Position numbers and translations under genes: made by a program
Shown here: piece after piece, positions 1 to 5,880 of the stretch
Layout: each line of letters begins with the position of its first letter
How positions within the stretch are numbered: position 1 is the first letter of the stretch
The notes under the pieces: model-generated
The model's database searches: none
What the model saw: the letters and a program-made list of their open reading frames with translations, nothing else
Told to the model about the DNA's origin: nothing
Source of the DNA: Escherichia coli
Lineage (GTDB): Bacteria; Pseudomonadota; Gammaproteobacteria; Enterobacterales; Enterobacteriaceae
Assembly (NCBI RefSeq): GCF_030013595.1
Contig: NZ_CP122773.1
DNA: 5,880 bases
Strand: one strand, 5' to 3'

Positions 1-1554
1 ATGATAGTTAAATTTCATGCCAGGGGAAAAGGTGGTGGCAGTGGTCCGGTTGATTACCTGCTGGGGAGGGAGCGTAACCGCGAAGGCGCAACGGTGCTTC
101 AGGGTAATCCGGAAGAAGTCCGGGAACTCATCGATGCCACGCCATTTGCGAAGAAATACACGTCCGGTGTTCTGTCGTTCGCGGAGAAGGAGCTGCCGCC
201 GGGAGGACGTGAAAAAGTGATGGCGAGCTTTGAGCGTGTACTGATGCCCGGTCTCGAAAAAAATCAGTACAGCATCCTGTGGGTGGAGCACCAGGACAAG
301 GGACGGCTTGAGCTGAATTTTGTCATTCCGAACATGGAGCTACAGACCGGAAAACGCCTCCAGCCGTACTACGACCGCGCAGACAGGCCTAGAATTGATG
401 CCTGGCAGACGCTGGTAAATCACCATTACGGGCTGCATGACCCGAACGCCCCGGAGAACCGCAGGACGCTGACACTCCCTGATAACCTGCCTGAAACGAA
501 ACAGGCGCTTGCTGAGGGCGTCACGCGAGGTATAGATGCACTTTACCATGCCGGAGAGATAAAAGGCCGTCAGGATGTGATTCAGGCGCTCACTGAGGCG
601 GGGCTGGAAGTGGTCAGGGTGACGCGAAGCAGTATCAGCATTGCAGATCCGAACGGCGGGAAGAATATCAGGCTGAAAGGAGCATTTTATGAGCAATCTT
701 TTGCAGACGGGCGCGGAGTTCGAGAAAAAGCTGAAAGAGAGAGCCGAATCTACAGAGAAAATGCTGAACAACGAGTTCAGGAGGCTCGGCGAATCTGTAA
801 GCGAGGCTGTGACATCAAACGAGACGAAAATCAGAGACGCTATAGCCCTGTTCACAGCCTCGACAGAGGAATCGCTGGAAAAACACCGGGAAGGGGTGAA
901 AGAGGCGATGATGCAGCACAGGAGGGACGTGTTAAAGCTGGCAGGGAATACGGGCATGATGTTACTGGGGATAGTCTTTCTCCTGTTTACCGCGAGTGGC
1001 GGGACGCTCTGGTATCTTGGAGGGAGGATACAGGCGAACCTGGAAGAAATCAGGAAGCAGGAAGAGACATTGCAGAAACTGAACGCGAAGACATGGGGCG
1101 TGGAGTTTGTGCAGGACGGGAACAGGAAATTCCTTGTCCTTCCGTACGGGAAATCAGCGGAGGTGATTCCCTTTCAGGGGAAAGAGTGGGTACATCTGAA
1201 GGAGTGACACAGAGTGACAGAGCTGGAAACACATTTGCTGAACGCCTTAGAGCAGCTGCAACAGGACTATATGCAGCGGCTGAGCGAATGGGAGAGCGCC
1301 TTCGTGGAATTGCAGAAGATGTTTTCGCTTACGCAACGGGACAACGCGATGCTGAACGAGCGGGTCATGCAGTTGAGTCAGCAGGTGCAGCACTTGAGCG
1401 AGCAGACAGAACGCTTGAGCCAGTTATACAGCGAGAACTGGAGATAAGAGAGGAACGGCTGATACAGGAGCGCGAACATGTGTTATCCCTGGAACGGGAG
1501 CGTCAGCCGGAAATACAGGAACGCACGCTGGATGGCCCTTCGCTGGGATGGTGA
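1..1554 (+). CDS. mbeA: Mobilization relaxase MbeA (ColE1-type)
   Basis: 517-aa ORF starting at ATG at base 1; N-terminus MIVKFHARGKGGGSGPVDYLL and overall sequence match my recollection of ColE1 MbeA; GC-rich backbone composition; mbeB and mbeD nested in an alternate frame as in ColE1. Confidence 0.9.
   Translation: MIVKFHARGKGGGSGPVDYLLGRERNREGATVLQGNPEEVRELIDATPFAKKYTSGVLSFAEKELPPGGREKVMASFERVLMPGLEKNQYSILWVEHQDKGRLELNFVIPNMELQTGKRLQPYYDRADRPRIDAWQTLVNHHYGLHDPNAPENRRTLTLPDNLPETKQALAEGVTRGIDALYHAGEIKGRQDVIQALTEAGLEVVRVTRSSISIADPNGGKNIRLKGAFYEQSFADGRGVREKAERESRIYRENAEQRVQEARRICKRGCDIKRDENQRRYSPVHSLDRGIAGKTPGRGERGDDAAQEGRVKAGREYGHDVTGDSLSPVYREWRDALVSWREDTGEPGRNQEAGRDIAETEREDMGRGVCAGREQEIPCPSVREISGGDSLSGERVGTSEGVTQSDRAGNTFAERLRAAATGLYAAAERMGERLRGIAEDVFAYATGQRDAERAGHAVESAGAALERADRTLEPVIQRELEIREERLIQEREHVLSLERERQPEIQERTLDGPSLGW
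689..1207 (+). CDS. mbeB: Mobilization protein MbeB, encoded inside mbeA in a different frame
   Basis: 172-aa ORF; ATG at 689 preceded by AAGGAG (677-682); hydrophobic segment MMLLGIVFLLFTASGGTLWYL; same nested arrangement and length as ColE1 mbeB. Confidence 0.8.
   Translation: MSNLLQTGAEFEKKLKERAESTEKMLNNEFRRLGESVSEAVTSNETKIRDAIALFTASTEESLEKHREGVKEAMMQHRRDVLKLAGNTGMMLLGIVFLLFTASGGTLWYLGGRIQANLEEIRKQEETLQKLNAKTWGVEFVQDGNRKFLVLPYGKSAEVIPFQGKEWVHLKE
1214..1447 (+). CDS. mbeD: Mobilization protein MbeD, nested in mbeA frame-shifted
   Basis: 77-aa ORF with GTG start at 1214, GGAG at 1201-1204; begins 7 nt after the mbeB stop; position and size fit ColE1 mbeD. Confidence 0.7.
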   Translation: MTELETHLLNALEQLQQDYMQRLSEWESAFVELQKMFSLTQRDNAMLNERVMQLSQQVQHLSEQTERLSQLYSENWR

Positions 1555-1559
1555 AACCA

Positions 1560-1730
1560 TGAAAAATGGCAGGTTCATTGGATTAAGGCGGACTAATGTG
1601 CTCTGTGCCATCTGGTTGCATAGGTATTCATACGGTTAAAATTTATCAGGCGCGATCGCGGCAGTTTTTCGGGTGGTTTGTTGCTATTTTTACCTGTCTG
1701 CTGCCGTGATCGCGCTGAACGCGTTTTAGC
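1560..1730. promoter_or_regulatory. cer-like accessory sequences (ArgR/PepA binding region) of the multimer-resolution site
   Basis: ARG-box-like TGCATAGGTATTCATA at 1617-1632, about 100 bp from the Xer core as in ColE1 cer; the stretch matches my recollection of the ColE1 cer accessory sequence almost base for base; contains inverted repeat 1649-1664 / 1701-1715. Confidence 0.65.
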
Positions 1731-1759
1731 GGTACGTACAAACTGTTGTTATGTTAAAT
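1731..1759 (+). other. XerC/XerD core recombination site (cer-like, variant central region)
   Basis: GGTACGTACAA (1731-1741; 10/11 to cer XerC arm GGTGCGTACAA), 7-bp central ACTGTTG (1742-1748), TTATGTTAAAT (1749-1759; identical to the dif XerD arm, 10/11 to cer TTATGGTAAAT). Confidence 0.7.
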
Positions 1760-1781
1760 ACTGATGGGCTTTCCTGATTGA

Positions 1782-2696
1782 TTATCCGAAGATCAATCCC
1801 CAAACACTTTTAGCTACAGAAACAATGGCTTTCTTGGCGACTTTAGCCACTGACGCTATTGGTTTAGGTAGTACGGTGTCTATTATATCATCAATAGCTC
1901 TATCTACGGTGTCTGCGAACCCGTCCTTTGCCGTTTCTACAATTTCTTTTGTTTTTATTTCGTCTTTTACTTGATGCACCACTCCGCTCTGTGCTTCCTT
2001 TGGGAGCGATCTTACTATTGCCTCCACTAACCTTGAAATGTTATAACCTTCATTCGCAGATACAGATATAACGGGATGTTTGGTAAAACCGAATCGTTCT
2101 ATTAAGTATTCTTCCTTTTTTCTAATATTTATTTGTTGTGAGGGTGATGGTTGGTGTTTTTCTTCATCCCATTCGCGGAATGGCTCAATCTTGTCGACTT
2201 GGTTTAAAACAAACAACACTTTTTCATCACCACCAACTGGTTTTAAAACATTTTTATAAAAGTGCTCATCAGCTGAAAATGCTCGATCATCACCTTTAAC
2301 AACCCAAAGCACCAGATCTAATTCTGGGAGAAGATTTTTATACAACTCTTCATATTCTATATCTTTAGCTTCATTTTCACCTACACCTGGTATATCTATT
2401 ATTTTAATTGTTCTATCACCAAATGAAATTATTAATTCCTGAACCTTTCTCGTGCATGCTTCTACATCACTCACTGCACATACATTACCTTTAAAGATAG
2501 AATTACATAGGCTGGATTTACCAGCGCCGGTTTTACCCATAATCCCTATTACTGGTTCGTAATTAATAACATTTCTAATTTTGTTATAGACAGACTTGCG
2601 AATCTCTTTAGGTAGAACATCCACAGCTTCTTTGATTAATTTTATACCTTGCGTATTGTTTTCCATAGTTACTATTTTCCTCATTTTGTTGTTCAT
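1782..2696 (-). CDS. P-loop GTPase, YfjP/YeeP/YkfA-like (50S ribosome-binding GTPase / MMR_HSR1-type domain)
   Basis: Walker A GKTGAGKS (nt 2514-2537, minus), G3 DIPGVGE, G4-like NQVDK; stretch VIGIMGKTGAGKSSLCN...DxPGVGE...LDLVLW resembles E. coli prophage GTPases YfjP/YkfA as I recall them. Start is ambiguous: ATG at 2696 lies 5 nt after the upstream gene stop; ATG at 2666 has an AGGAA 9 nt upstream; the track's ATG at 2753 gives a K/R-rich extension overlapping the upstream gene and has no SD. Confidence 0.8.
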   Translation of the reverse strand: MNNKMRKIVTMENNTQGIKLIKEAVDVLPKEIRKSVYNKIRNVINYEPVIGIMGKTGAGKSSLCNSIFKGNVCAVSDVEACTRKVQELIISFGDRTIKIIDIPGVGENEAKDIEYEELYKNLLPELDLVLWVVKGDDRAFSADEHFYKNVLKPVGGDEKVLFVLNQVDKIEPFREWDEEKHQPSPSQQINIRKKEEYLIERFGFTKHPVISVSANEGYNISRLVEAIVRSLPKEAQSGVVHQVKDEIKTKEIVETAKDGFADTVDRAIDDIIDTVLPKPIASVAKVAKKAIVSVAKSVWGLIFG

Positions 2697-2701
2697 ATGA
2701 A

Positions 2702-3136
2702 TTAACGGAAGCTTGTTTTTCTTTCTTCTTTTTCTTCCCCGCATACAGAACATTTGTAATGGCGATAGGTATCAGAACTCCCACTAAGATACCAATTGTG
2801 TCTTTTACCATGAACTCGCTCTGTAAAACATCTCACGCATCTTTCTTTCACATTGCAATAATCATCGACTGCAATTTCAACAAATCTTTCATGCCTTTCG
2901 CCTTCTTGTTCAGCGCCACAGTCGATACACTTTTTTACAGTTGTGCACTTGAAATCGTATTTATAATTTTCCTCTCCGTATTTATGCTGTTCTTTTTGTA
3001 TAGTGCGATTGCAGTCAGGGCATAGTTTAGAATATTTACAAGTCTCACCATCAATAAGCTTATAGTTTCCTCCGTGTATACCTACCCCACACTTAGCCTT
3101 GATTGCTGCATTTTTTATGCTATCCCAAAAGCCCAT
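2702..3136 (-). CDS. Cysteine-rich putative zinc-binding protein (three tandem C-x5-C-x2-C...H modules plus terminal CxxC)
   Basis: 144-aa ORF; SD GGGAG 8 nt upstream of ATG at 3136; 12 Cys; C33-x5-C39-x2-C42, C64-x5-C70-x2-C73, C94-x5-C100-x2-C103 with periodicity ~30 aa, each followed by His, and C129-x2-C132; AT-rich like neighbours. Confidence 0.75.
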   Translation of the reverse strand: MGFWDSIKNAAIKAKCGVGIHGGNYKLIDGETCKYSKLCPDCNRTIQKEQHKYGEENYKYDFKCTTVKKCIDCGAEQEGERHERFVEIAVDDYCNVKERCVRCFTERVHGKRHNWYLSGSSDTYRHYKCSVCGEEKEERKTSFR

Positions 3137-3181
3137 GGAAAAATCTCCCTACGATTAGTTGATATAAGTTGAACAATTCAT

Positions 3182-3225
3182 CGACATGATTATACACGTA
3201 TAGTGTGTGGATATATAAAAATGAG
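3182..3225 (-). promoter_or_regulatory. Candidate sigma70 promoter for the zinc-ribbon/GTPase operon
   Basis: Perfect TATAAT on the minus strand (complement of 3189-3194) about 46 nt upstream of the 3136 start codon; -35 is weak (TATATA-like); AT-rich intergenic region. Confidence 0.3.
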
Positions 3226-3363
3226 TATGGATTTATGCTCTGTATAATGTTGTTGTTATATTAAATATAGAGCTGAAAAAGTGGGGGCACTGGATAAACT
3301 TCGTGTTTTTCCCGCAAAGATAGTATTGGAAAGTCATTGTCTAATTCATCCAAGATAAATATT

Positions 3364-4176
3364 TTACGAATTTGTGAGTTTGCTTGAGATTTTTATATAT
3401 TCAGCCTTTATTAACTCATTGCCATATTTTTTCTCGAGCCTTTTAACAATGAAATGACCTCGAGCCATATCTTGATAATAGTCGGTAAACATTGTGTTTA
3501 ATGTGGCTCCAGTTAGTGCTCCAATAACGGGAACGACTTGAGCTGCCATTTTTTCCGTAATAACTATACCAAATCTTGTTGCAACTTTTTCTATTAACGA
3601 AGCTAACCATTTTCCTGTTTGTACTGAAGATGCGTTTTTGACAGCAATGTTAGAAATTTCTTTGGATAAATCTTGTACGATCTCGGCAGTCAAACTTCTT
3701 GTTGCATAGTATGCAGTATTAGCTGCATCATCGTCATCAGATGGTCCTCCCAAGGAAAACACCTCTAAGCAGGCCAGTTTGGTATCAATATTATCTAGCT
3801 CAAAACCTTCACTTCTTGCTATGTCAGCAATTGAACGAAGCATAATTGTCGTTGAAACCGGTAACTCAATTGCTAATGCAGAAAAGCCAAAAGCGCCACC
3901 AATGGCTCCAGATACGGCCGCAAAGAATTTATTTGTCTTAGTTGATGCTATTCGGTTAGGTTCATTGTCTAGACTCCATAAGGCTGCATCAGCAGCTTTG
4001 TGGAGAGATTTTTCTACTAGACTATAAATTTGCTCTTCTGCCCCTTTGGGAAGTTTACTCATTAAGTAATCTATTGGGGTTCCAACTAATTGGGTTAATG
4101 TTTCAGTAATTGTATCTTGTTCTAATAATTCTACGGCCCTTTCTAAAGCCCGCAGATCTCCTTCTTCAAGATGCAT
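3364..4176 (-). CDS. Hypothetical protein, possibly EcsC-family-like
   Basis: 270-aa ORF; AAGGA 8 nt upstream of ATG at 4176; Gly/Ala-rich hydrophobic segments (AAVSGAIGGAFGFSALAIELPV, VVPVIGALTGATLNTMF), acidic patch GGPSDDDD; overall impression matches EcsC-family proteins but this is from memory, not a search. Confidence 0.7.
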   Translation of the reverse strand: MHLEEGDLRALERAVELLEQDTITETLTQLVGTPIDYLMSKLPKGAEEQIYSLVEKSLHKAADAALWSLDNEPNRIASTKTNKFFAAVSGAIGGAFGFSALAIELPVSTTIMLRSIADIARSEGFELDNIDTKLACLEVFSLGGPSDDDDAANTAYYATRSLTAEIVQDLSKEISNIAVKNASSVQTGKWLASLIEKVATRFGIVITEKMAAQVVPVIGALTGATLNTMFTDYYQDMARGHFIVKRLEKKYGNELIKAEYIKISSKLTNS

Positions 4177-4329
4177 ATAATGAATCCTTTATGAATCAAT
4201 CGATAGTCTACTTTTGTAAGTGATTCGTCTTGGGAGCTTACCTTGAGCGAGTTCAGTGATTCAATAGGCGAGATGCCGACATCATTGTTGTCTGTGAAGC
4301 AGGAGTGATGAAAAGATCAAAGGATCCTC

Positions 4330-4358
4330 TTGTGATCCTTTTTTTCTGCGCGTAATCT
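4330..4358 (+). promoter_or_regulatory. RNA II (replication primer) promoter
   Basis: -35 TTGTGA (4330-4335), 17-bp spacer, -10 TAATCT (4353-4358); aligns with the pMB1 P2 region (TTGAGA...GTAATCT). Confidence 0.7.
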
Positions 4359-4367
4359 GCTGCCTGT

Positions 4368-4475
4368 AAACAAAAAAACCACCGCTACCAACGGTGGTTT
4401 GTTTGCCGGATCAAGAGCTACCAACTCTTTTTCCGAAGGTAACTGGCTTGGTGGAGCACAGATACCAAATACTGT
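4368..4475 (-). ncRNA. RNA I antisense copy-number control RNA (108 nt)
   Basis: Reverse complement of 4368-4475 reads ACAGTATTTGGTATCTGTGCTCCACCAAGCCAGTTACC...CCACCGTTGGTAGCGGTGGTTTTTTTGTTT, i.e. the canonical three stem-loop RNA I with terminal hairpin plus U-run; differs from pMB1 in loop-proximal bases. Confidence 0.85.
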
Positions 4476-4483
4476 CCTTCTAG

Positions 4484-4511
4484 TGTAGCCGCAGTTAGGC
4501 CACCACTTCAA
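4484..4511 (-). promoter_or_regulatory. RNA I promoter
   Basis: On the minus strand, -35 TTGAAG (complement of 4506-4511) and -10 CTACAC (complement of 4484-4489), 8 nt upstream of the RNA I 5' end; same arrangement as pMB1. Confidence 0.6.
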
Positions 4512-5149
4512 GAACTCTTAATATCTCAATCCACCTTGTCCAGTTACCAGTGGCTGCTGCCAGTGGCGCTTTGTCGTGTCTTACCGGGTTGGACTCAAGA
4601 CGATAGTTACCGGATAAGGCGCAGCGGTCGGGCTGAACGGGGGGTTCGTGCACACAGCCCAGCTTGGAGCGAACGACCTACACCGAACTGAGATACCAAC
4701 AGCGTGAGCTATGAGAAAGCGCCACGCTTCCCGAAGGGAGAAAGGCGGACAGGTATCCGGTAATCGGCAGGGTCGGAACAGGAGAGCGCACGAGGGAGCC
4801 ACCAGGGGGAAACGCCTGGTATCTTTAAGTCCTGTCGGGTTTCGCCACCTCTGACTTGAGCGTCAATTTTTGTGATGCTCGTCAGGGGGGCGGAGCCTAT
4901 GGAAAAACGCCAGGGGCGCGGCCTTTTTCCTGGTTTTGCCTTTTTGCTCACATGTTCTTTCCGGCCTTATCCCCTGATTCTGTGGGTAACCGCATTACCG
5001 TCTCTGAGTGAGCTGATACCGCTCGCCGCAGCCGAACGACCGAGCGCAGCGAGTCAGTGAGCGAGGAAGCGGAAGAGCGTAGGCATTTGCATTTTCTCCT
5101 TACGCATCTGTGCGGCATTTCACACCGTCCATGGCGCACTTTTCATACA

Positions 5150-5300
5150 ATCCGCACTGATGTCGCATAGTTAAGCCAGTATACACTCCGCTAGCGCTAC
5201 GTGACTGGTTCAGGGCTTCGCCCCGAAACCCCCTGACGCGCCCTGACGGGCTTGTCTGCTCCCGGCATCCGCTCACAGACAAGCTGTGACCGTCTCCGGG
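5150..5300 (-). other. oriT / bom region (ColE1-type), nic site approx. 5175/5176 on the minus strand
   Basis: Minus strand reads ...GTAGCGCTAGCGGAGTGTATACTGGCTTAACTATGCGACA..., near-identical to the pBR322 bom/nic region as recalled; nic position inferred by alignment, not seen directly. Confidence 0.6.
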
Positions 5301-5311
5301 AGCTGCATGTG

Positions 5312-5503
5312 TCAGTGGTTTTCACCGTCATCCCCGAAGCGTGCGAGGCAGCTGCGGTAAAGCTCATCGGCGTGGTCGTGAAGCGATTCACAGATATCTG
5401 CCTGTTCATCCGCGTCCAGTTCGTTGAGCTTCTCCAGCAGCGTTAATGTCTGGCTTCTGATAAAGCGGGCCATGTTAAGGGCGGTTTTTTCCTGTTTTGT
5501 CAC
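5312..5503 (-). CDS. rop: Rop/Rom RNA I-RNA II pairing modulator (63 aa)
   Basis: GTG start at 5503 preceded by GGAGG 5 nt upstream; protein (M)TKQEKTALNMARFIRSQTLTLLEKLNELDADEQADICESLHDHADELYRSCLARFGDDGENH matches pMB1 Rop except the last residue; the 87-aa track ORF is an upstream in-frame extension. Confidence 0.9.
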   Translation of the reverse strand: MTKQEKTALNMARFIRSQTLTLLEKLNELDADEQADICESLHDHADELYRSCLARFGDDGENH

Positions 5504-5567
5504 TGATGCCTCCGTGTAAGGGGGATTTCTGTTCATGGGGGTAATGATACCGATGAAACGCGAGAGG

Positions 5568-5880
5568 ATGCTCACGATACGGGTTACTGATGATGAACAT
5601 GCCCGGTTACTGGAACGCTGTGAGGGTAAACAACTGGCGGTATGGATGCGGCGGGTCTGCCTGGGGGAGCCGGTTGCCCGTTCCGGAAAACTGCCGACAC
5701 TGGCACCGCCGTTACTGCGTCAGCTGGCCGCCATCGGAAATAACCTGAATCAGACAGCCCGTAAGGTGAACAGCGGGCAGTGGTCTTCCGGTGACCGGGT
5801 TCAGGTGGTGGCCGCACTGATGGCCATCGGGGATGAGCTGCGCCGGCTGCGTCTGGCTGTCAGGGAACAGGGGGCGCGGG
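5568..5880 (+). CDS. mbeC: Mobilization protein MbeC (3'-partial, runs off window end)
   Basis: ATG at 5568; open frame to window end translating MLTIRVTDDEHARLLERCEGKQLAVWMRRVCLGEPVARSGKLPTLAPPLLRQLAAIGNNLNQTARKVNSGQWSSGDRVQVVAALMAIGDELRRLRLAVREQGAR, matching ColE1/pMB1 MbeC as recalled; not in the ORF track because it has no stop in-window. In-frame ATGs at 5535, 5544 and 5553 are alternative starts. Confidence 0.85.
   Translation, partial: MLTIRVTDDEHARLLERCEGKQLAVWMRRVCLGEPVARSGKLPTLAPPLLRQLAAIGNNLNQTARKVNSGQWSSGDRVQVVAALMAIGDELRRLRLAVREQGAR

Follow-up and report, generated by a model that had tools for sequence, protein, structure and literature searches.

The stretch of DNA analysed here (5,880 nucleotides, hereafter the window) is very probably a complete circular plasmid of the ColE1 type whose sequence is given starting at the mbeA ATG, a reading that rests on its sequence and on comparison with deposited plasmids. 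The initial annotation had proposed a whole circular plasmid opened at the mbeA start, and this was borne out by alignment with doubled circular relatives, in which the window forms one full unit: positions 1-5880 are recovered as a single blastn HSP against plasmids of 5,879, 5,880 and 5,891 bp. The parts identified on it (Table 1) make up the full ColE1 replicon set, namely RNA I, RNA II and ori, bom/oriT, rop, mbeC together with mbeA/B/D/E, and cer. Their proposed order (ori, oriT, rop, mbeC, mbeA/B/D, cer, cargo and again ori) agrees with the ORF, domain and Rfam results and with the comparison to ColE1.

Table 1. Features located on the 5,880-nucleotide window, with the evidence for each assignment.
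Feature	Position	Strand	Evidence
mbeA, MOB-HEN relaxase, 517 aa	1..1554	+	ATG at base 1; NCBIfam NF047848, Pfam Relaxase
mbeB, 172 aa, inside mbeA in a different frame	689..1207	+	Pfam MbeB_N 78.9 bits; annotated in relatives
mbeD, 77 aa, mobilization/exclusion protein	1214..1447	+	Pfam MbeD_MobD 121 bits; NCBIfam NF033829 120 bits
mbeE-like 53-aa 'mobilization protein' ORF	1478..1639	+	ORF; annotation of relatives
cer multimer-resolution site, ColE1-type accessory sequences and core	1613..1759	+	near-identical to ColE1 cer up to 1741
cer core: GGTACGTACAA (XerC arm) - ACTGTTG - TTATGTTAAAT (XerD arm)	1731..1759	+	pattern search, arm scoring, ColE1 alignment
Cargo gene 1: GTPase of 294 aa with a TRAFAC-type G domain (YeeP/Era-like 'GTPase family protein')	1782..2666	-	Pfam MMR_HSR1 62.6 bits
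Cargo gene 2: 144-aa Cys/His-rich protein	2702..3136	-	ORF, conserved Cys/His, AlphaFold2 model
Second, degenerate Xer-like core: GCTCTGTATAA-TGTTG-TTATATTAAAT	3240..3266	+, oriented as cer	direct repeat
Cargo gene 3: 270-aa EcsC-family protein	3364..4176	-	Pfam PF12787 EcsC 110.5 bits
RNA II primer transcript, to origin at ~4920-4930	4366..4926	+	93% identical to ColE1 ori region; coordinates inferred
RNA I, antisense copy-number regulator	4370..4473	-	Rfam RF00106
bom/oriT	5140..5310	-	90% identical to ColE1 oriT
Conserved nic region GGAGTGTATACTGGCTTAAC	5171-5190	-	within bom/oriT
rop, 63 aa, RNA I/RNA II kissing-complex modulator	5312..5503	-	Pfam Rop PF01815 128.6 bits; annotated in all relatives
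mbeC, MobC/NikA-like relaxosome accessory protein	5568..5880, continuing at 1..11	+	Pfam MobC 46.5 bits, NikA-like 35.4 bits

A check of the window ends for terminal overlap returned no direct repeat of 8-400 nt and, because of this, circularity is argued by comparison with the relatives. A junction probe composed of the last 600 and the first 600 nt of the window (1,200 nt) is found gapless within four records by blastn, with 100% identity in p602A1-12K (CP100018.1). In seven rotated relatives, the end ...GCGCGGG lies immediately before ATGAT[A/T]GTTAA, and joining base 5880 to base 1 neither loses nor gains a base with respect to them. The same junction completes mbeC, whose portion up to the window end comprises codons 1-104 and one base, base 5880 being the first of codon 105. 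This gene had been suspected of falling about three codons short of its stop; indeed, bases 1-11 supply D, D, S and the stop, and the joined gene encodes 107 aa from the ATG at 5568, ending in GARDDS with TAA at 9-11. The joined product is 93-99% identical to, and shares its C-terminus with, the annotated 107-aa MobC proteins of the relatives, which are internal in their records. The expectation that mbeC directly precedes mbeA also holds, as after closure the two genes overlap by 11 nt and the same overlap is annotated in the relatives.

The better surviving alternative, which nonetheless appears improbable, is that the window represents one unit of a larger molecule (a multimer, an IS-mediated cointegrate or an integrated copy) with no free 5.9-kb monomer. 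The closest sequence match is the 12.9-kb IS91 cointegrate p602A1-12K (12,915 bp), which holds the whole window at 100%, end-to-start junction included, and ColE1-like segments also occur in chromosomes (308 places) and in large plasmids (197-kb record H48). In the cointegrate, however, IS91 lies after CTTG at window 5254/5255 and links the plasmid to another ColE1-like one, whereas the window lacks IS91 and continues unbroken across this insertion point; a 21-nt tandem duplication that p602A1-12K carries after window 1420 is likewise absent from the window. Moreover, the window is exactly one unit long and opens on a start codon, which an arbitrary cut would not produce, and 19 independent records describe free circles 5.88-5.89 kb in size. 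A multimer would be indistinguishable from a monomer by sequence, yet it would be the same plasmid. The start at the mbeA ATG reflects an existing rotation convention, since the deposited record used here to represent ColE1 (pHN68-4, NZ_CP141848.1, 6,647 bp) begins there too. An incomplete linear contig whose ends adjoin by chance, with bases lost or doubled at the join, would fit the lack of an overlap directly proving circularisation, but it is even less probable in view of a join that is the same as in the relatives with nothing missing or added, of the in-frame closure of mbeC with exactly their C-terminus, and of a total length inside their range of 5,878-5,892 bp.

As a complete circular plasmid, the window belongs to a type that is already known, since about 20 near-identical plasmids of 5.88-5.89 kb have been deposited from E. 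coli, Klebsiella and Salmonella. Two overlapping lists, with seven records from PLSDB and 13 from RefSeq E. coli, contain plasmids of 5,878-5,892 bp that cover 100% of the window, and one further relative of 5,885 bp was deposited as linear and gapped. The relatives are deposited as circular plasmids, those of PLSDB being typed as 'mobilizable' by MOB-suite, and their hosts are E. coli, K. pneumoniae and S. Typhimurium from several countries; the sources of the plasmid type include humans, livestock, food and the environment. Size, gene set and gene order are those of the window in pE1246_2, pSTEC711_3, pR18.0292_5.9k, pMV-v4-SK2-O-b, pTig228-5K and the unnamed plasmid of CFIAFB20180540. Neither PLSDB nor the set of RefSeq complete E. 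coli genomes contains a record matching the full circle at 100%; the highest full-length identity is 98.7% (5,879 bp). Within the 5.88-5.89-kb relatives the cargo is 99.2-100% identical to that of the window and the cer core is identical, whereas backbone identity is only 90-97%. The mobilization region of the window is 99.3% identical to that of ColE1 versus 94-96.6% to its own 5.88-5.89-kb family, so that the window copy can be regarded as a mosaic variant. The 3.27-kb ColE1-like plasmids (e.g. NZ_CP033763.1) share with the window the EcsC gene and the adjoining ori region (92% identical, window 3370-4864) as well as a 7-bp cer central region, but they are devoid of the mbe, GTPase and Cys-rich genes and carry EcsC as their only cargo.

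Comparison with ColE1 reveals the same gene order and orientation, with 99.3% identity over window 1-1741 (mbeA/B/D/E and the cer accessory region) and 93.1% over window 4310-5880 (ori, oriT, rop and mbeC); for ori and oriT identity is 88-94%. The two plasmids differ in RNA I at window 4450-4460 and by a 10-bp indel in oriT. The main difference lies in the 3.3-kb exc1/exc2-cea-imm-lysis block of ColE1 (colicin, immunity, lysis and exclusion), in place of which the window carries a 2.57-kb GTPase, Cys-rich and EcsC cargo.

At the level of replication, a promoter for RNA II can be read from the sequence as TTGTGA-17 nt-TAATCT at 4330-4358, and the +1 and +555 positions of this transcript were placed from the ColE1/pBR322 maps, which we take to apply here. 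A general promoter and terminator scan was uninformative (four promoter-like sites versus 7.1 expected). RNA I matches its Rfam family over its full length (68.6 bits, gathering score 47, E = 1.7e-11). Rop, also known as Rom, is present in ColE1 and optional among ColE1-type replicons. No plasmid Rep domain is detected by Pfam or NCBIfam in any ORF of the window, and a 52-aa ORF annotated in the relatives as 'replication initiation protein' sits inside RNA II. By analogy with ColE1, RNA II would prime theta replication, and antisense RNA I together with Rop would restrain it. From the same homology we infer that the plasmid is probably maintained in multiple copies.

Regarding mobilization, MbeA scores 882 bits against the NCBIfam 'relaxase MbeA' model (cut-off 500) and carries Y19, H97, E104 and N106, corresponding to the catalytic Tyr and the H-E-N motif in what is presumably the residue numbering of ColE1 MbeA. 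The mbeE-like ORF has no match in Pfam or NCBIfam; at its position the relatives annotate a 162-nt 'mobilization protein' gene (WP_071779130.1). Within oriT, the nic-region block GTTAAGCCAGTATACACTCC is unchanged across the relatives, and the exact nick position was predicted from the pBR322 map, which we assume to hold for this plasmid; the consulted papers on ColE1 oriT give no nick sequence in their text. MbeA, aided by MbeB, MbeC and MbeD, would nick at oriT, with the mating apparatus being provided by a co-resident conjugative helper plasmid. Homology to ColE1 thus suggests that the plasmid may spread when such a helper is present, and the 'mobilizable' typing of relatives and their distribution over three genera lend this indirect support only.

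The multimer-resolution site cer was recognised by its two arms of 11 bp each and by some 180 bp of accessory sequence that precede the XerC arm on its upstream side. The core pattern occurs once in the window and in none of 200 shuffles, and the core is unchanged across the relatives. Upstream of the XerC arm, the accessory region (ArgR/PepA region) is near-identical to that of ColE1 cer, and a second ColE1-like plasmid likewise matches window 1613-1741. Homology to ColE1 stops exactly at the XerC arm (base 1741): the 8-bp central region of the ColE1 type, TTAAGGGA, is absent from the cer of the window, where an unrelated 7-bp ACTGTTG is found instead, and the XerD arm that follows is TTATGTTAAAT rather than TTATGGTAAAT. 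Because its central region is both shorter and unrelated, the site is a hybrid rather than ColE1 cer as such, and its efficiency in resolution is not guaranteed given the difference between 7 and 8 bp. In analogy with ColE1, host XerCD, ArgR and PepA acting at cer would keep the plasmid monomeric.

The cargo comprises three genes of low GC content (0.30-0.42, compared with about 0.55 in the backbone) encoding a GTPase, an orphan Cys/His-rich protein and a member of the EcsC family. The GTPase retains intact G1 (GKTGAGKS), G3 (DIPG) and G4 (NQVD) motifs, its gene displays a GAGGA Shine-Dalgarno before the ATG at 2666, and the protein falls into a 100%-identical cluster (P0014). The Cys/His-rich protein has no match in Pfam, NCBIfam, PHROG or PADLOC, and only 13 homologous clusters were retrieved in the homologue search. 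It contains 15 invariant Cys/His residues, and its AlphaFold2 model, with a mean pLDDT of 89, has no fold match in the PDB. In PADLOC, the EcsC protein hits the candidate PDC-S29 (2.7e-10). A conserved pairing of the Cys-rich and GTPase genes was considered and rejected, as Cys-rich homologues are found alone in variable islands with no adjoining GTPase gene and GTPase homologues occur in integrase islands without a Cys-rich gene. Homologues of all three cargo genes do occur in defence-type islands; together with the EcsC match to PDC-S29, this makes a load devoted to phage defence or competition conceivable.

The GTPase and Cys/His-rich genes are bracketed by two Xer-type cores, cer and the second, degenerate core (Table 1), and are flanked by direct copies of TGTTGTTATGTTAAATA, which spans the central region and the XerD arm. 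The 17-nt direct repeat formed by the second core and window 1744-1760 is identical at 16 of 17 positions in the window and at all 17 in L001, and no shuffle out of 200 contained two matches to it; in the relatives, the second core has a perfect XerD arm, TTATGTTAAAT. The end of ColE1 homology at the XerC arm and the location of the module between direct copies of TGTTGTTATGTTAAATA lead to a tentative and rather doubtful proposal, in which this 1.5-kb module was caught at cer by XerCD and might still be excisable, the cargo perhaps being a phage-defence or competition load that replaced the colicin operon. Neither the GTPase and Cys-rich module nor the 3137-3400 spacer was found in PLSDB in any context beyond this plasmid family, and the same database yielded no empty-site relative lacking the GTPase module. 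Xer-bounded modules have been described mostly in Acinetobacter (PMC7399989). In Acinetobacter pdif modules and in IMEX elements, cargo is bounded by XerC/D sites, much as the GTPase and Cys-rich genes lie here between two Xer-type cores, but the two sites of the window are directly oriented, and cer, one of the two, is complete and includes its accessory sequences.

The whole-plasmid assignment sets the context for all genes of the window, placing the conserved three-gene cargo on what appears to be a self-sufficient, mobilizable and likely multicopy ColE1 backbone. The finding is correct but ordinary and does not extend what is known of plasmid biology. If Xer sites did mediate the capture of cargo, this ColE1 plasmid of enterobacteria would harbour a Xer-bounded cassette.

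The window's 5,880 bases make up the entire source sequence, and the initial annotation had read them as probably a complete circular plasmid linearised at the mbeA start, with mbeC, if about 107 aa long as in ColE1, about three codons short of its stop. The mbeC frame, entered at ATG 5568 (or 5553), runs without a stop up to base 5880. Once base 5880 is joined to base 1, wrap-around translation ends the frame in ...REQGARDDS*; its TAA stop occupies window 9-11, and mbeC shares 11 nt with the start of mbeA. The product from ATG 5568 is exactly 107 aa long, and the predicted shortfall of about three codons thus proved exact. Wrapped MbeC is 93-99% identical, with the same C-terminus, to the 107-aa MobC annotated within the records of six relatives, where the 11-nt mobC/mbeA overlap is annotated likewise. 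By blastn, a join probe made of the last 600 and first 600 bases aligned without gaps in the four records that have this point internally, with 100% identity in CP100018.1. Moreover, all seven relatives rotated to the window start end in ...GCGCGGG directly before ATGAT[A/T]GTTAA. This shared contiguous join indicates that no base is absent or extra at 5880|1. A search for a terminal direct repeat at the window ends found none.

At the family level, this is an ordinary plasmid type, already known and deposited many times. Seven circular plasmids of 5,878-5,892 bp in PLSDB match the window over its full length at about 97% identity, and the complete E. coli genomes of RefSeq hold 13 (the best of 5,879 bp, at 98.7% identity), the two lists sharing entries. 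The records of eight relatives were fetched for local blastn, in which doubled circles of 5,879, 5,880 and 5,891 bp gave a single HSP over window 1-5880. Unit-length alignment with circular relatives, the base-exact join and mbeC closure together uphold the complete-circle reading, and sequence comparison makes it highly probable that the window is a complete mobilizable ColE1-type plasmid opened at the mbeA ATG. It is very unlikely that one unit was cut out of a larger molecule: part of p602A1-12K (CP100018.1), a 12.9-kb IS91 cointegrate, matches the window at 100% identity, but the window is exactly one unit long and unbroken across the IS91 insertion point at 5254/5255. Even less credible is an incomplete contig whose ends adjoin by coincidence, given that the join is base-exact in relatives.

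The cointegrate p602A1-12K combines the window's plasmid with another ColE1-like plasmid and two IS91 copies. Its IS91 sits immediately after CTTG in the oriT region, and 21 nt of its mbeA/mbeD (GAGCAGACAGAACGCTTGAGC), at window 1420, are duplicated in tandem. Regarding the complete plasmid, its start at mbeA would reflect rotation of the circularised contig after assembly. The record of pHN68-4 (NZ_CP141848.1), a deposited ColE1, likewise has the ATG of mbeA as its first bases and shares the window's mbeB and mbeD coordinates, which indicates that opening such plasmids at mbeA is existing practice. Plasmids of this type have been recovered in Sweden, China, Taiwan, Switzerland and Canada from E. 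coli, K. pneumoniae and S. Typhimurium; the sources were humans, goat, sheep, mink, food and environmental swabs. Together with the database typing of the relatives as 'mobilizable', this range lends indirect support to spread.

Features of the plasmid in window coordinates
Feature	Position	Strand	Details
mbeA	1-1554		517 aa; 882 bits against the NCBIfam ColE1 relaxase MbeA model (cut-off 500)
mbeB	689-1207		nested in mbeA
mbeD	1214-1447		nested in mbeA
'mobilization protein' ORF	1478-1639		53 aa
cer	about 1613-1759
cer core	1731-1759		GGTACGTACAA-ACTGTTG-TTATGTTAAAT (XerC arm, 7-bp central region, XerD arm)
GTPase	1782-2666	minus	294 aa
Cys/His-rich protein	2702-3136	minus	144 aa
second Xer-like core	3240-3266		degenerate; same orientation as cer
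EcsC-family protein	3364-4176	minus	270 aa
RNA II	about 4366 to origin near 4925	plus	placed by ColE1 alignment and published-type plasmid maps; approximate
RNA I	4370-4473	minus	Rfam, 68.6 bits
bom/oriT	about 5140-5310		conserved block GTTAAGCCAGTATACACTCC
rop	5312-5503	minus	Pfam, 128.6 bits
mbeC	5568 across the join to 11

MbeA retains Y19, H97, E104 and N106, which correspond to the catalytic tyrosine and the HEN motif of the ColE1 relaxase. By homology, the plasmid would be primed for replication by RNA II and throttled by RNA I and Rop to a multicopy state, the Mbe relaxosome would nick oriT, and a helper conjugative plasmid would provide the mating apparatus. Host XerCD, with ArgR and PepA, would resolve multimers at cer, a mechanism summarised elsewhere (PMC4743918, PMC5935869). 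Helpers of the IncF, IncP, IncI and IncW groups are described as mobilising ColE1, for which bom is required in cis (PMC9282650). The 5' stem-loop of RNA I (window 4450-4460) reads GGCTT-GGTGGAGCAC, versus GGCTTCAGCAGAGCG in ColE1 RNA I, and is identical to that of its own family and of 3.27-kb EcsC plasmids; since it differs from ColE1, the plasmid may be compatible with ColE1. A 52-aa minus-strand ORF (4495-4653), annotated by PGAP as 'replication initiation protein' in relatives, lies wholly within the RNA II primer region, and this annotation is probably spurious.

ColE1 is 99.3% identical to window 1-1741 and 93.1% identical to 4310-5880. In place of the 3.3-kb ColE1 segment with exc1/exc2 and the genes for colicin E1, immunity and lysis, the window has 2,568 bp, in which GC drops from about 0.55 in the backbone to 0.30-0.42. 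Within the family (window versus L001, L002, L004 and L015-L018), identity is 99.2-100% in the cargo (1761-4309) and only 90-97% in the backbone, while the mobilization region is closer to ColE1 (99.3%) than to the window's own relatives (94-96.6%). This pattern suggests that the conserved cargo sits in a backbone made mosaic by recombination.

Among the cargo genes, the one for the EcsC-family protein has a PADLOC match to the candidate PDC-S29 (E = 2.7e-10), and together with the adjoining origin it is 92% identical to the 3.27-kb plasmids (L006), in which EcsC is the only cargo. A chromosomal copy with about 81% identity (L007, 8979-9812) neighbours a type I restriction-modification system. 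A hydrophobic, Gly-rich segment spans residues about 84-110 of the EcsC-family protein. A faecal ColE1 amplicon survey lists 'era GTPase' and 'escC family', the latter probably EcsC misspelt, among cargo genes (PMC5864857); thus, both kinds of cargo had already been seen on such plasmids, with no function assigned. The GTPase has intact G1, G3 and G4 motifs, and homologues of 66% identity reside in integrase islands beside WYL regulators. Annotations of relatives place its start at ATG 2666, which is preceded by a GAGGA Shine-Dalgarno; the longest ORF, from ATG 2753, would overlap the Cys-rich gene. The Cys/His-rich protein has only 13 homologous clusters among 5.8 billion proteins, with 15 invariant Cys/His residues. 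In a confident AlphaFold2 model (mean pLDDT 89), β-hairpin repeats come after a helix at the N-terminus, and a PDB fold search with this model returned no match. Its homologues are solitary in variable or defence-type islands, such as the mutS-rpoS variable region in Mixta and a tmRNA-adjacent island beside SMC_N/MComp1/CTD4 genes in Yersinia, and they also adjoin McrB-like and WYL genes.

At the cargo border, ColE1 homology ends exactly at the last XerC-arm base of the cer core (1741). ColE1 continues with TTAAGGGA-TTATGGTAAAT as central region and XerD arm, in contrast to ACTGTTG-TTATGTTAAAT in the window. On alignment, cer is therefore a hybrid site, and looks like what Xer-mediated exchange would leave when two heterologous cer-like sites recombine. 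In the second Xer-like core, the 17-mer TGTTGTTATATTAAATA repeats 1744-1760 at 16/17 positions (none of 200 shuffles reached two matches) and at 17/17 in one relative, L001. The XerD arm of this core is a perfect TTATGTTAAAT in relatives, among which the length of the central region differs. The two cores bracket the GTPase and Cys-rich module; PLSDB yielded no empty-site relative without it. Xer-bracketed modules have been reported mostly from Acinetobacter (PMC7399989). The potential for novelty in this plasmid is limited to its Xer-bracketed cargo.
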